A DNA stretch of 64,000 nucleotides from an uncultured Alphaproteobacteria bacterium (lineage in GTDB: Bacteria; Pseudomonadota; Alphaproteobacteria; MPNO01; UBA830): the NCBI GenBank assembly GCA_913046035.1, contig CAJWSW010000007.1:5116-69115 (forward strand), in the 5' to 3' direction. Position numbers and translations under genes: made by a program. Of the stretch, positions 1,494 through 64,000 are shown one piece after another. The notes under the pieces are model-generated. The model was not told the DNA's origin and made no database searches. It saw only the letters and a program-made list of their open reading frames with translations. How positions within the stretch are numbered: the first letter of the stretch is position 1; each line of letters begins with the position of its first letter.

Positions 1494-2303
1494 TCATACA
1501 GGCCGATAAAAGTGCCAGTCTCTTATTGGTATTTGAGCTTCTGTGTCCACCGATTTGATCAAAGCACGATATGGCCGATACAGCGTGCGAGAAGTCAGGA
1601 TCTGAAAAAGCCGCAATTTTTTGGTTTGTCGATACATTTTGTAATCAACCTCCGTGTACCCGTAATACCTTTTCAAAAGTCGGATAGCCGCGCGGACAGA
1701 AGGCATGAAGCTATCGTCAAAAACAATTGCCCCACCAGTGCGAAGCATCTGATTAATGTAATACAACTCCATCATTAAGTGGTCTAAGGTCTTCCAGCCA
1801 TCCATAAAAATAAAATCAAACTTCTCATTTGCGAGGAAAAGCTCTGGTACCGCGCGATTACTGTTGATTTGTATAAGGCGGTGCCGCGCCGAGAAACCGT
1901 TGTCGGATAATAATTTTTTCCCCCTCGTCGCGTCTTTTCCCACATCTAGGCATACCGAGGTGACACGACCATCACGGGCCGCCACAGCATTGGACATATA
2001 AAGTGCCGTGCTACCGGTGTGAAATCCCATCTCAAGGCAAGCTTCCCCCTCGATTTCCTGTAAAAGAAGATATAACAAATCCCCTTCTTCCGGATGGCAA
2101 TACGGGTATCCAGGTAAGCGCATCTTTTCAATGGCTTCGCGAATAGGGGCTGTCTCAAGGAGCGGCCGATAACGTAGGTATTCTGCGACGTAACGTTTCA
2201 AAATAAACTGCCGCTGTTTTTGCTGGCTTTGTTTAGTAATCGCATTTACCAGGTTCCTGACAGATAATCTCCACTGTGGTAGGAACATAACATGAGTAGC
2301 CAA
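1494..2303 (-). CDS. Class I SAM-dependent O-methyltransferase (family 3, caffeoyl-CoA OMT-like) with N-terminal extension
   Basis: Gly-rich LEMGFHTGSTALYM SAM-binding motif and FDFIFMDGWK (OMT family 3 DxDK-like motif). Its 5' end overlaps the divergent UbiD start. Confidence 0.6.
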   Translation of the reverse strand: MATHVMFLPQWRLSVRNLVNAITKQSQQKQRQFILKRYVAEYLRYRPLLETAPIREAIEKMRLPGYPYCHPEEGDLLYLLLQEIEGEACLEMGFHTGSTALYMSNAVAARDGRVTSVCLDVGKDATRGKKLLSDNGFSARHRLIQINSNRAVPELFLANEKFDFIFMDGWKTLDHLMMELYYINQMLRTGGAIVFDDSFMPSVRAAIRLLKRYYGYTEVDYKMYRQTKKLRLFQILTSRTLYRPYRALIKSVDTEAQIPIRDWHFYRPV

Positions 2304-3773
2304 GTAGACATAGAAGCAGCTGGGTCGAACGCAGGTTGTGTTCTGGAATACGATGACCTTCGAGACTGGCTATCAGCCGTCGAAGCGAAGGGGGATTTGA
2401 AGGTTGTAACTGGGGCCAACTGGCACACCGATATTGGGCAGGTAGTCGAAGTGATGTGTCACGACGAGGGCACGCCGTCCGTGCTGTTCGATCAGGTCGA
2501 GGGGTGCCCGTCTGGGTTTCGCATACTAATCAACTGGTTCACCGGCTCGCGCAAGAACCTGACGTTGGGTTTCCCGGAAAGCTTTGACAAATTAGAACTC
2601 TCGCGTGGTTACCACGCACACACTACAAATATGAAACCTGTGCGACACGAAATTGTTGACACCGGGCCTGTGCTGGAGAATGTCCTTGAGGGTGACAATA
2701 TTGACGTCACCAAGTTTCCGGCGCCGCTTTGGAACCCGGAAGATGGGGGCCGTTACATAGGTACTGGCTGTTTCAATATCACCCGCGACCCCGAAACTAA
2801 CTGGATCAATTGCGGTACCTATCGCGTTATGATCCACGATGAAAAACGCGTTGGGCTTTATATTTCGCCCGGAAAACATGGACGAATTCACCGCGAAAAA
2901 TACATGGCTAAGGGAGAACCCATGCCAGTTTGCATCGTTGTCGGGACGGATCCACTGTCCTTCCTAACCTCCTCAACCGAGGTACCGGAAGGAATGTGCG
3001 AACTTGACATGATGGGTGCATATCGGGGGAAGCCAATCCAATGCGTCACAGGCAAACATACTGGGTTGCCCTTCCCCGCTAATTCCGAAGTCGTGATTGA
3101 GGGTTTTATCCATCCAGGTAACACCGAAAGAGAAGGTCCCTTTGGTGAATGGTTGGGATATCAAGGAAGTGCAATGGAGGCAGAGCCTTGGGTCGATATC
3201 TCAGCAATTTACCATCGAAACGATCCCATCTTGCTCGGCGCAGCGCATATCAGGCTGCCTTATGAATATGCGCGCTACCGCGCAATTAGCCGGTCTGCCG
3301 TTCTAAAAGAAAGCATGGCCAAGGCAGGCGTTCCTGACGTAACGGAGGTATGGGCACATGAAGTTGGCGGCTCGCGCTTGTTTCTTGCAGTTGCAATTAA
3401 ACAACGTTACCCCGGCCATGCCGTTCAGGCTGGCCACATCGCCGCTATGTGTCACGCGGGTGCGTATCTCGGCCGGTTCGTTATAGTTGTCGATGAGGAC
3501 GTCAACGTTACCGATCTGGAAGAAGTCATTTGGGCCGCCTGCACGCGATGCGATCCAGTTTCCAATATCAATTTTATCGAGAACGCTTGGTCATCAGCAT
3601 TAGATCCTATCCTCTCCCCACAGGACCGAAAGGACGGAAAGCTGTACAATAGTCGCGCAATCATTGATGCTTGCCGCCCGTTTCATTGGAAAGACGATTT
3701 CCAGAAGGTCAATGCCCCTTCACCAGAGGCGCGCCGAGAGGCTTGGGACCGATGGGCGCATTTACGAGAATGA
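2292..3773 (+). CDS. UbiD-family (prFMN-dependent) reversible decarboxylase
   Basis: 493 aa, full-length UbiD/3-octaprenyl-4-hydroxybenzoate carboxy-lyase family architecture (WHTDIGQ..., GTGCFNITRDPETNWINCGTYR, EGPFGEWLGY). Confidence 0.8.
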   Translation: MSSQVDIEAAGSNAGCVLEYDDLRDWLSAVEAKGDLKVVTGANWHTDIGQVVEVMCHDEGTPSVLFDQVEGCPSGFRILINWFTGSRKNLTLGFPESFDKLELSRGYHAHTTNMKPVRHEIVDTGPVLENVLEGDNIDVTKFPAPLWNPEDGGRYIGTGCFNITRDPETNWINCGTYRVMIHDEKRVGLYISPGKHGRIHREKYMAKGEPMPVCIVVGTDPLSFLTSSTEVPEGMCELDMMGAYRGKPIQCVTGKHTGLPFPANSEVVIEGFIHPGNTEREGPFGEWLGYQGSAMEAEPWVDISAIYHRNDPILLGAAHIRLPYEYARYRAISRSAVLKESMAKAGVPDVTEVWAHEVGGSRLFLAVAIKQRYPGHAVQAGHIAAMCHAGAYLGRFVIVVDEDVNVTDLEEVIWAACTRCDPVSNINFIENAWSSALDPILSPQDRKDGKLYNSRAIIDACRPFHWKDDFQKVNAPSPEARREAWDRWAHLRE

Positions 3774-60134: not shown

Positions 60135-61136
60135 TCATTGCCCATAAATTTGCGAAGACGCATAGCGCAAAACACTTGAATTCGCGCCAACAATAGGGCC
60201 CTTCTCGCTGATATAACGCCGCCACAATCGCGCACCGCGCATTCCCTTGTACAGCCCTAGAACATGACGTGCCATCGAATAGAACGGGACACCATCTGCG
60301 ATTTGGTGGTCCATGTATTCGATATATCGATCAAGAACCACTTCACGGGTCTCTGGCGCCGTTCCATTCAGGATCTCATTTTCAATTTCCGAGAGAAACC
60401 AGGGGTTTTGGTATGCAGCTCGGCCAATCATTACACCGTCAACATGCCGCAAATGCGTCGCCGTTTCCGCGACAGTCATAATACCGCCATTTATGGATAT
60501 CGAAAATTCCGGGTATTTCTGTTTGAGCCGGTACACTGTTTCATAACATAACGGTGGTATTTCTCTATTTTCTTTAGGGCTTAATCCATTGAGCCAAGCC
60601 TTTCGTGCATGAATGATAAAGGTGTCGCATCCCCCGTTAGCCACAGTTTCAATAAAGTGTACGAATTCATCCCAGCTGTCGTAATTATCCACGCCAATTC
60701 GGGTTTTGACTGTTACAGGAAGATCTACTGCCTCACGCATCGACCGAATGCAGTTAGCCACAACTTCAGGCTCTTTCATAAGGCACACTCCGAACTTCCC
60801 GTTTTGAACCCTGTCGCTGGGGCAGCCCACATTAAGATTTACTTCGTCATAACCGTATTCCGATGCAATTTCCGCGCAACGTGCTAAATCCCCGGGATCG
60901 GACCCTCCGAGTTGTAGCGCTAAAGGATGTTCGGATTGATTGTATTTCAAGAAACGATCCCGTTCCCCGTGAAGGATTGCACCCGTCGTTATCATTTCGG
61001 TGTAAAGCAAAACGGCGGACGAAATTAGCCGCAAAAAATAACGATCATGCCGGTCAGTGCAGTCCATCATCGGGGCAATGGAAACTCGCCTGTCAAGAAC
61101 GTTGGCTTTTTTGGTAATTTTCGTTTTAGCAGACAT
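60135..61136 (-). CDS. dusA: tRNA-dihydrouridine synthase A
   Basis: ...SIAPMMDCTDRHDRYFLRL... plus a DUS TIM-barrel. Start taken at MSAKTK. Confidence 0.8.
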   Translation of the reverse strand: MSAKTKITKKANVLDRRVSIAPMMDCTDRHDRYFLRLISSAVLLYTEMITTGAILHGERDRFLKYNQSEHPLALQLGGSDPGDLARCAEIASEYGYDEVNLNVGCPSDRVQNGKFGVCLMKEPEVVANCIRSMREAVDLPVTVKTRIGVDNYDSWDEFVHFIETVANGGCDTFIIHARKAWLNGLSPKENREIPPLCYETVYRLKQKYPEFSISINGGIMTVAETATHLRHVDGVMIGRAAYQNPWFLSEIENEILNGTAPETREVVLDRYIEYMDHQIADGVPFYSMARHVLGLYKGMRGARLWRRYISEKGPIVGANSSVLRYASSQIYGQ

Positions 61137-61360
61137 AGGAAGGCTTTTGGCGCGGGTTATAAGAATTTTGTAGTAGAAAGCGGTACGGTTGAAAAGTCTC
61201 GAAAATCCCCGATAAGCAGTGATATCGGAGTGCAAGCAACTAACGGGAAATGTCGTTTGTTTTTAAAATCTAAAAAGCACACATCACAAGCCGAGAGCTC
61301 TAAACAAGATTGTCTTGGTCCGTCTAATTAGCCTGAATCAAATTCTTTTCAGAAACCTTA

Positions 61361-62479
61361 TTAGAGCCAACGCCCCCACTCCGCGCGAACCTCTGGGTCA
61401 TCCTCCAAAGTCATGTAACGGTCGCGCAGCGCGGTTAAATGTGAGGCGGTTGAAAGGCACGTCAGCGCCCAAACAGCCATTGCCCGGACTAGCGGAGAGC
61501 GATCCATAATAAAGGATTCGAGTTCTTCCACGAAGATAGGCGAAGCGCTGTTCCCCACAGCGATCAGTACATTCCGTATAAAGCGATCCCGTCCGAGACG
61601 CTTAATCGGGGAACCGGAGAAAACGCGTCGAAAGGCTTCATCATCCAAATGCATTAAATCCTGCAACGCGGGCCGCATTAAATGGATATGAGGGGTTAAT
61701 TCTCGATGAGGTGTCACTTTCGCGAACTTGTTCCAAGGACAAACCGCCAGACAATCATCGCAACCGTATATCCTGTTACCTATAGCGCGGCGGAACTCAC
61801 GTGGAATGTGTCCCTTATGTTCTATCGTCAAATACGAGATACAGCGCGTTGCGTCGAGCTGGTAGGGCTGAGGAAACGCGTGGGTTGGACAGATATCAAT
61901 GCACCTGCGACACTCACCGCATTTATCCTCGCCCGGGCTGTCCACAGGCAATTCTAAGTTCGTAAATATCTCCCCCAAAAACAGCCAGGAACCAAAGTCT
62001 CGGGATACTAGATTAGTATGCTTTCCCTGCCACCCCAGACCCGCCATCTGTGCGACGGGTTTTTCCATGACCGGAGCAGTATCAACAAATAATTTCACTT
62101 CGCAGTTCCAATTGTTTGCGATCTCACCAGCAAGCTGACGAAGTTTTTTTTTCAAAACCTGGTGATAGTCACGCCCCCTTGCATACACCGAAACCGCACC
62201 CCGGTCTGGGAGTTCCAGCAATGCTAAAGGGTCTTCTGCCGGACCATAATTCATTCCCACCGCGACCACACTCTGAACATCCGCCCACAAATCACGAGGT
62301 GAACGACGTCGGTCTCGTGTCGCTTTCAACCAGCCCATGTCGCCATGGAAGCCGTTTTCAAGAAAGGAATTGAGATGCTGGCCTACATCTCCATTTTCAG
62401 GCCCAGCAAAACCGATAATGTCGAAACCCATTTCGAGTGCTCGATCTCGGATGGCGAGTTTTGGATTGCCTGCCTTCAT
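61361..62479 (-). CDS. queG: Epoxyqueuosine reductase
   Basis: N-terminal cobalamin-binding region and tandem 4Fe-4S motifs (CGECRRCIDICP, CDDCLAVCP). Confidence 0.8.
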   Translation of the reverse strand: MKAGNPKLAIRDRALEMGFDIIGFAGPENGDVGQHLNSFLENGFHGDMGWLKATRDRRRSPRDLWADVQSVVAVGMNYGPAEDPLALLELPDRGAVSVYARGRDYHQVLKKKLRQLAGEIANNWNCEVKLFVDTAPVMEKPVAQMAGLGWQGKHTNLVSRDFGSWLFLGEIFTNLELPVDSPGEDKCGECRRCIDICPTHAFPQPYQLDATRCISYLTIEHKGHIPREFRRAIGNRIYGCDDCLAVCPWNKFAKVTPHRELTPHIHLMRPALQDLMHLDDEAFRRVFSGSPIKRLGRDRFIRNVLIAVGNSASPIFVEELESFIMDRSPLVRAMAVWALTCLSTASHLTALRDRYMTLEDDPEVRAEWGRWL

Positions 62480-62480
62480 A

Positions 62481-63608
62481 CTAAATCTGCTCAATATCGC
62501 CACTTGCCTGTTCTTCGTGGAACACAGCAGCAAACTCATCAAGCGAACCCATCTCAATCGCACCGCGGATACTCGCCATCAAATCCTGATAATAGTGGAG
62601 GTTGTGCATAGTTAATAGAATGGGCCCCAACATCTCCTTTGCTTTGAAAAGATGATGCAGATATGCGCGACTGACTTGACCAACCCCAGGATAATCACTG
62701 TCGGCATCAAGAGGCCGGGGATCTTCGGCGTGCCGGGCATTTCGGATGTTCAGGGTGCCGCGACGAGTAAAGGCTTGACCGGTGCGGCCCGACCGCGTCG
62801 GCAGCACACAGTCAAACATATCAATCCCTCGCCTAACTGCGCCAACGATATCCGACGGAGTTCCGACACCCATCAAATACCTAGGGCGGTTCTCAGGCAG
62901 CGCTGGAGCAGTAACGTCCAAAACGGAAAACATCGCTTCTTGTCCCTCACCAACCGCAAGCCCTCCTACTGCATAACCGTCAAAACCTATTTCTTTTAAC
63001 GCCGCAGCACTCTCAATCCGAAGATCGGGATACACACTTCCCTGGACAATGCCGAATAGGCCGTATCCCGTCCGCACCTCAAATGCGTCCCGGCACCTCA
63101 GTGCCCAGCGCATAGATAAACGCATCGAATTCGCGGCAGACCTCGCATCGACGCCATTGGCTGTGCATTCATCAAGTGCCATCGTAATAGTAGAACCAAG
63201 ATAGTTTTGAATTTCGATCGATCGTTCCGGTGTCAGCCAGAATTTTGCGCCGTCAATGTGCGAACGGAATTCGACACCTTCGTCACTGAGTTTGCGCAAA
63301 TCGGTCAAAGACATTACCTGAAATCCACCGGAATCAGTCAGAATCGGTTTGCGCCAGTCCATAAACTCATGCAAACCGCCCAGCCTATTAACCCTCTCGG
63401 CACCGGGCCGCAGCATCAAGTGATACGTATTAGCGAGAATAATATCGGCGCCAGTCGCGGAAATAGCATCCGACGTCATCCCCTTTACCGTTGCCGCGGT
63501 ACCCACAGGCATAAAAACCGGTGTTTCTACCTTGCCGTGCGCCGTCGTGAGCGAGCCGCGGCGAGCACGGCCATCGGTATGAGTTAGCGCGTATTCGAAC
63601 TTAGGCAT
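62481..63608 (-). CDS. tgt: Queuine tRNA-ribosyltransferase (zinc-site Cys triad absent)
   Basis: DSGGFQ, GGLAVGE and MFDCVLPTR catalytic blocks. The canonical CxCxxC is replaced by SDYPGV; the following SRAYLHHL His is retained. Confidence 0.85.
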
Positions 63609-64000
63609 TGTCCTCTGATCGGTGCAAAAAACTGGAATCACCATAAGAATAGAACCTGTAACCTGCATCGATAGCGTGGGCGTATGCACGCTTCATACGG
63701 GCGGTTCCGGCAAAGGCCGAGACCAACATGAAGAGCGTGGAACGCGGCAAATGAAAGTTCGTTATCAGGGCATCAACAGCACGGAAGCCGTAACCAGGCG
63801 TAATAAAAATGTCGGTTTCTGCTTTAAAGGGACGGATTTCGCCATCTTTCGATGCAGCGCTCTCCAAAAGACGCAGTGAAGTGGTTCCAACTGCAACGGC
63901 GCGGCCACCCGCACTGCGAGCGGCGTTAATCATCTCCGCTGTCGACGCGTCAATGCGCCCCCATTCGCTGTGCATCTTGTGTTCTGAAACTCGATTAACT
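63601..64000 (-). CDS. queA: S-adenosylmethionine:tRNA ribosyltransferase-isomerase, C-terminal part (gene start lies beyond the window end)
   Basis: C-terminal QueA blocks (...[17 protein letters not shown]..., YRFYSYGD). 8 nt overlap with tgt. Confidence 0.8.

Follow-up and report, generated by a model that had tools for sequence, protein, structure and literature searches.

In bacterial tRNA-guanine transglycosylase (Tgt), the structural zinc is held by a Cys3His site, and zinc-ligand mutants of the E. coli enzyme, which were the subject of work by Chong et al. in 1995, reportedly lose both zinc and activity. The four ligands have been described as being under "absolute conservation", in an analysis from which sequences without these ligands were discarded (PMC3074131). 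The searchable literature, which leaves most subscription journals outside its scope, yielded no account of a bacterial Tgt without zinc ligands, and to that extent the original prediction, made from the DNA described below, was right in considering such a protein as a natural variant that has not been described. In the paralogous family of DpdA, the protein of E. coli phage 9g lacks conservation at two of the four zinc-ligand positions (PMC5699537). Moreover, structural Cys zinc sites have been dispensed with, while fold and function were retained, in DksA2 and in the C-minus forms of L31 and L36 (review PMC11672702), and in some pathogens zinc starvation affects queuosine synthesis (PMC9894224).

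The protein analysed here, P0001, is similar to canonical Tgt (Z. mobilis, PDB 1ozm and 1q2r; E. coli; EC 2.4.2.29) in its catalytic Asp pair, its preQ1 pocket (C158/V233-type) and its linkage to queA, as well as in the TIM barrel and C-terminal subdomain predicted by modelling. It differs from canonical Tgt by C318S, C320Y and C323V, by the aliphatic nature of its W326 equivalent and by the presence of Gly at 310. P0001 shares the TGT fold with the DpdA of phage 9g, whereas the latter has a DNA substrate, a preQ0-type pocket and no queA or queG link. An assignment of P0001 as a DpdA, i.e. a DNA-guanine transglycosylase, was rejected on the basis of its context (queA, queG and dus) and of its preQ1-type pocket. 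Finally, DksA2 and C-minus L31 and L36 are extra paralogues that are Zur-switched under zinc starvation, whereas the putatively zinc-free Tgt is the only copy. The possibility that P0001 is a second copy beside a zinc-binding paralogue was discarded, since the genome, like that of each relative, has one TGT-family gene.

The tgt gene of the window and its zinc-site residues

The window, that is, the whole stretch of 64,000 nucleotides that was analysed, comes from an uncultured marine alphaproteobacterium and carries a tgt open reading frame on the minus strand, which starts with an ATG at 63608-63606 and ends with a TAG stop codon at 62483-62481. The gene and the codons considered in this work are the following.

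62481..63608, minus strand: tgt, tRNA-guanine(34) transglycosylase, zinc-ligand-free form, 375 aa (P0001), from the open reading frame and its translation
63333..63335, minus strand: D92 (GAT), equivalent of Z. mobilis D102 in DSGGFQ, invariant in the alignment
62811..62813, minus strand: D266 (GAC), equivalent of the catalytic nucleophile D280 in MFDCVLPTR, invariant in the alignment
62699-62697, minus strand: S304 (AGT), corresponding to Z. mobilis C318
62693-62691, minus strand: Y306 (TAT), corresponding to Z. mobilis C320
62684-62682, minus strand: V309 (GTT), corresponding to Z. mobilis C323
62604..62606, minus strand: H335 (CAC), kept equivalent of the fourth zinc ligand, Z. mobilis H349
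62673..62699, minus strand: remodelled former zinc loop, S304-D-Y306-P-G-V309-G310-Q-V312, from the alignment, the codons and the family-specific residues

P0001 aligned over its full length with Z. mobilis Tgt (PDB 1ozm and others), with an E value of 4e-143 and about 60% identity (phmmer). It reached 475.6 bits with the TIGR00430 equivalog model (NCBIfam; cut-off 306.75) and 498.9 bits with PF01702 (cut-off 26.3). The latter match was the sole one in the genome searched (2.78 Mb in 127 contigs, 91% complete, 4% contamination), which thus holds one TGT-family gene, and the search for a second tgt copy that had been proposed as a check returned none. The residues D92, D146, C148, Q189, G215-G216-L217-A218, G220, E221, M246 and D266 do not vary among 50 homologues. 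The preQ1-type pocket, formed in Z. mobilis by D156, C158, Q203, G229-G230-L231-A232-V233 and M260, is matched by D146, C148, Q189, the GGLAVGE block at 215-221 and M246, V219 being the one pocket position absent from the list of invariant residues.

The zinc-loop segment of P0001 was aligned gap-free to Z. mobilis Tgt LDSECHCAVCQKWSRAYIHHL (phmmer). The equivalents of C318, C320 and C323 are S304, Y306 and V309, and only the His is left of the structural zinc site. The reading that the three Cys ligands are absent, replaced by Ser, Tyr and Val, while the His and the catalytic blocks are intact, was therefore correct, as H335, DSGGFQ, GGLAVGE and MFDCVLPTR are all present in P0001. It had also been stated that each of the three codons is one nucleotide away from a Cys codon; this applies to AGT and TAT (which may give TGT), but not to GTT, which is two changes away from TGT or TGC. 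To speak of the loss of the zinc subdomain was too strong, since the sequence of the subdomain is complete and the ligands alone are gone. Chance is not an issue for these missing ligands, because they concern single residues of an unmistakable orthologue. Judged by its sequence, P0001 is a Tgt variant without the zinc site and not a typical member, its orthology being clear by other criteria.

Proposed packing of the former zinc loop

With a probability of roughly three in four, P0001 is the single functional Tgt orthologue of its genome, and its Cys3His structural zinc site gave way to non-metal packing in the ancestor shared by one alphaproteobacterial family. The enzyme would exchange G34 of tRNA-Asp, tRNA-Asn, tRNA-His and tRNA-Tyr for preQ1, and would bind no structural zinc. 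Tyr306 and Val/Leu309, together with the co-varying Gly310 and the aliphatic residue at 312, would fill and brace the space of the former metal cluster, and Tyr306 may pair with the retained His335. A zinc subdomain of this kind would still fold, dimerise and bind tRNA. P0001 is most likely zinc-independent and active.

Because zinc-ligand mutants of E. coli Tgt are reported to lose zinc and activity, compensation must presumably exist in P0001, and we infer it only from residues that co-vary with the ligands. The 23 Tgts of the family were compared with 60 zinc-type alphaproteobacterial Tgts, with the following outcome.

Positions 304, 306 and 309: S, Y and V in the family; C, C and C in the 60 zinc-type Tgts
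Position 310: Gly in the family; R, T, A or K in zinc-type and other zinc-less Tgts
Position 312 (equivalent of W326): V, I, L or A in the family; aromatic in 60/60 zinc-type and 24/24 other zinc-less Tgts
Position 334: M, L or T in the family; mostly W or E in zinc-type and other zinc-less Tgts

The only family-specific residues of P0001 are T140, G152, S304, Y306, V309 and Q367. The glycine at 310 and the aliphatic residue at 312, as family-specific states, go along with the ligand loss. W326 is one of the four residues of the Tgt dimer aromatic cluster (bioRxiv 10.1101/2020.09.01.277731), and V312 of P0001 stands in for it. The dimer-interface residues are otherwise kept, namely K42, F82, Y316, H319 and E325 (equivalent to K52, F92, Y330, H333 and E339), i.e. 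five out of six, position 326 being the one that is changed.

The AlphaFold (AF2) model of P0001 (pLDDT 86.5, pTM 0.88) superimposes on Z. mobilis Tgt with a TM score of 0.94 and an rmsd of 1.7-2.1 A over about 372 columns, the confidence of the model being lowest around the remodelled loop (mean pLDDT of 76 for residues 301-310). The homodimer prediction scored 0.78, against 0.00 for the best of three controls; since the Z. mobilis dimer has been solved, this pass may derive from that known structure and shows likeness only. Of 30 proteins solved as pairs of one chain, 20 reach the mark used for homodimers, compared with 1 of 23 solved as single chains. The homodimer runs agreed in at least 96% of contacts with a partner pLDDT of at least 91, and the predicted interface (residues 38-47, 63-84, 294-297 and 307-331) is the known Tgt interface. 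It had been anticipated that the dimer architecture would be affected; this was not supported, the predicted fold and dimer interface of P0001 being like those of canonical Tgt.

His335 is kept in 22 of the 23 family genomes despite the loss of its three partner ligands, and acidic residues are common at positions 301 and 303, as might be expected if a structural metal were still bound in an altered site through a new ligand set (e.g., His335, Tyr306 and nearby Asp or Ser oxygens). However, such a site is improbable. Position 304 is occupied by S, R or C within the metagenomic clade described below and is therefore not a ligand, position 305 may be D, N, G, S, H, K or A, and position 309 is Val or Leu, both incapable of metal ligation. 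D301 is equally conserved in zinc-type Tgt, and no new conserved Cys or His was found in the 23 family Tgts as compared with the 60 zinc-type ones. It should be noted that the His335 equivalent is Asn (AAC) in one genus-mate (G002, L004), and the retained His is therefore not indispensable.

Operon context, queuosine pathway and selection

The tgt gene belongs to a cluster with the gene order queA-tgt-queG-dus, all genes being on the minus strand. It is an internal gene of this operon, which begins beyond the limits of the window.

63601..64000, minus strand: queA, 3' part, which continues beyond the window (PF02547, E 7e-53)
61361..62479, minus strand: queG, epoxyqueuosine reductase (QueG_DUF1730 and Fer4_16; 372-aa QueG cluster members)
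60135..61235, minus strand: dus, tRNA dihydrouridine synthase, last gene of the tRNA-modification cluster (PF01207, E 1e-83)

The queA stop codon overlaps the tgt start codon (ATGCCTAA), and the likely ATG of queG is located at 62479, one base past the tgt stop codon. The same queA-tgt-queG-dus order was observed in relatives, with queF sometimes inserted. The genome also encodes tRNA-His(GTG), tRNA-Asn(GTT) and tRNA-Asp(GTC), which have GUN anticodons.

Two further genes of the pathway are located away from tgt, QueC at 2517-3275 (+) and QueF at 1799-2263 (-) of locus L117 (G000:C11:47500-53500). QueC retains its Cys-x14-Cys-x2-Cys-x2-Cys motif, and a general purge of zinc sites was therefore rejected, at least for the queuosine pathway. 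QueD (PF01242) and QueE (TIGR04508) were detected neither in the source genome nor in any of the 24 family genomes, and YhhQ (PF02592) was not detected in the source genome. The presence of QueC and QueF without QueD and QueE would imply the uptake of 7-carboxy-7-deazaguanine or preQ0 via some transporter; the family seems to depend on the salvage of queuosine precursors, and the absence of QueD and QueE leaves the supply of substrate not fully explained. Full-length QueC is patchy across the family and is missing from the four genus-mates.

The motif S-x-Y-P-x-[V/L] was found in 23/23 family genomes carrying tgt, i.e. the source genome and 22 others from a set of 40 related genomes, while CxCxxC is kept in three other families of the order (f2-f4). 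The replaced codons vary synonymously among the species of the family (AGT/AGC, TAT/TAC, and GTT/GTC/GTA/GTG or CTT). Among the 120 best matches in a collection of 5.8 billion proteins, 85 clusters form one clade with [S/R/C]-x-Y-P-x-[V/L], in which the Tyr never varies and an aliphatic residue always occupies position 309. The DNA pattern for S-x-Y-P-x-[V/L]...SR[AG]Y.HH was found in 0/400 other genomes sampled from about 210 families of the class, and the S-Y-V form is specific to the source family. Among named relatives, those closest by their Tgt carry the label Rhodospirillales or Rhodospirillaceae. Within the family, dN relative to the tgt gene of the window ranges from 0.11 to 0.26, whereas dS is saturated for all pairs but one; because of this saturation, dN/dS was used qualitatively and not as a ratio. 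These data indicate that tgt is under strong purifying selection.

This selection is one of several reasons why we regard as highly improbable that tgt is inactive or re-purposed, for example through an inability to bind tRNA or a change to another substrate. Such a fate would be in line with the inactivity reported for zinc-ligand mutants of E. coli Tgt, with the loss of the W326-equivalent aromatic and with the non-detection of QueD and QueE in the family. However, the catalytic and preQ1-pocket residues are all invariant, and the score of P0001 exceeds the TIGR00430 equivalog cut-off. Moreover, tgt is translationally coupled to its neighbours queA and queG, whose function depends on the product of Tgt, and no other TGT-family gene is available to do the job. 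A sequencing, assembly or binning artefact of the metagenome-assembled genome, for which its 127 contigs, 91% completeness and 4% contamination might be invoked, is already effectively refuted as a cause of the missing cysteines: 22 further species-level genomes and more than 80 independent metagenomic clusters of several origins have the same residues, with varied synonymous codons.

The zinc-ligand loss is thus a real, selected and family-wide lineage trait. The alignment with close relatives proposed at the outset showed that all of them carry the same substitutions, which argues against a peculiarity or a possible error of one genome, all the more so as the codons are synonymously varied. 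The original prediction had given, as a ground for its own refutation, that close relatives are uniformly substituted and have a compensating metal site; the former was observed, but no such metal site is visible.

Ligand-poor Tgts elsewhere in the Alphaproteobacteria

The loss of zinc ligands is not unique to the source family and is widespread, with other residues, in Rhizobiales and in other Alphaproteobacteria. In Rhizobium, Shinella, Hoeflea, Mesorhizobium, Brucella rhizosphaerae and Xanthobacter, most Tgts read S-x-C-P-A-[A/S/T] and show Asn, Ile, Ala or Val in the place of H349. Ligand-poor Tgts also occur in two Erythrobacteraceae, one Sphingosinicella, one member of the Parvularculaceae and several MAGs, whereas the CCCH set persists in Rhodobacterales, Acetobacteraceae and most Sphingomonadales. 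Within the family to which Brucella rhizosphaerae belongs, two or three ligands are missing from 39 out of 40 sampled genomes, and a single Tgt was found in each of the three named Rhizobiales genomes tested. When the 150 best representatives of clusters at 50% identity were considered, 108 were CCCH and about 30 full-length sequences were without the triad, the residues in its place being diverse.

In a maximum likelihood tree of 107 sequences, the source family forms one clade (SH-aLRT 100), the sister of which is a CCCH sequence. The zinc-less trait needs six changes on this tree, and eight when its own columns are dropped; a single origin of all zinc-less alphaproteobacterial Tgts was rejected (dlnL 484, p-AU 3e-5). 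Like P0001, the Rhizobiales Tgts are orthologous, single-copy and have an incomplete zinc site. Unlike P0001, they display S-x-C-P-A-[A/S/T], a replaced His349 and a kept aromatic residue at 326, and they are of independent origin, in separate clades.

The view that ligand-poor Tgts are functional is supported indirectly by two organisms. In S. meliloti, a tgt mutant has the behaviour of a queuosine-pathway mutant, and preQ1 does not rescue it (PMC3568095); the bTGT of B. henselae partially complements an E. coli tgt mutant (PMC11570991), in a paper in which zinc is not mentioned. According to phylogenetic bracketing, both S. meliloti SMc01206 and B. henselae bTGT would be ligand-poor.

It is tempting, though rather doubtful, to consider the metal-free Tgt as the result of a recurrent adaptive sparing of zinc. 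Alphaproteobacteria would then have replaced zinc at least 6-8 separate times with different chemistry, the marine family having a unique Tyr-for-zinc plug together with the loss of one dimer-interface aromatic. If this were true, Tgt would be a natural test case for the way in which a structural zinc site can become dispensable, and one zinc-dependent step of queuosine synthesis would be removed. More generally, if the ligand-poor Tgts are active and metal-free, zinc would be a structural brace that can be replaced, and the fold itself would not require it.

A whole family holds a single, selected and operon-embedded Tgt without the textbook Cys3His site, for which absolute conservation across the three domains has been claimed, and Rhizobium and Brucella are well-studied groups with their own ligand-poor versions. 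Ligand-poor Tgts may serve as natural experiments for the zinc starvation of queuosine synthesis and for work on the Tgt dimer interface. The function of the zinc-less Tgt would be otherwise ordinary, and the novelty lies in the structural variant and not in the kind of enzyme.

Several other observations were made during these searches. Five metagenomic homologues that are 70-74% identical (P0082, P0087, P0090, P0095 and P0113) display further independent losses, with G-S-S, C-W-G and S-C-S, all of them within the family's zinc-type sister group. The Tgt of the window falls in a 90%-identity cluster, that of P0002, which also lists QueG and QueG-associated DUF1730 proteins; this is probably an artefact of the clustering, tgt and queG being nearly adjacent. 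In one genome of the Brucella rhizosphaerae family, the Tgt match is split over two open frames (G512:C1:2952096-2953198), and this tgt gene is probably frameshifted or broken. Finally, four genomes of the order, from family f5, carry a divergent Tgt-like gene of 408 aa (e.g., G035 L118 860-2086 (+)), in which CxCxxC is kept. Its product has about 44% identity to the Tgt of the window and an insertion after DSGGFQ. The pocket is altered, with a GGCLPARQED block and a replacement of GVGTPSD as well, and this protein may have a different substrate specificity.
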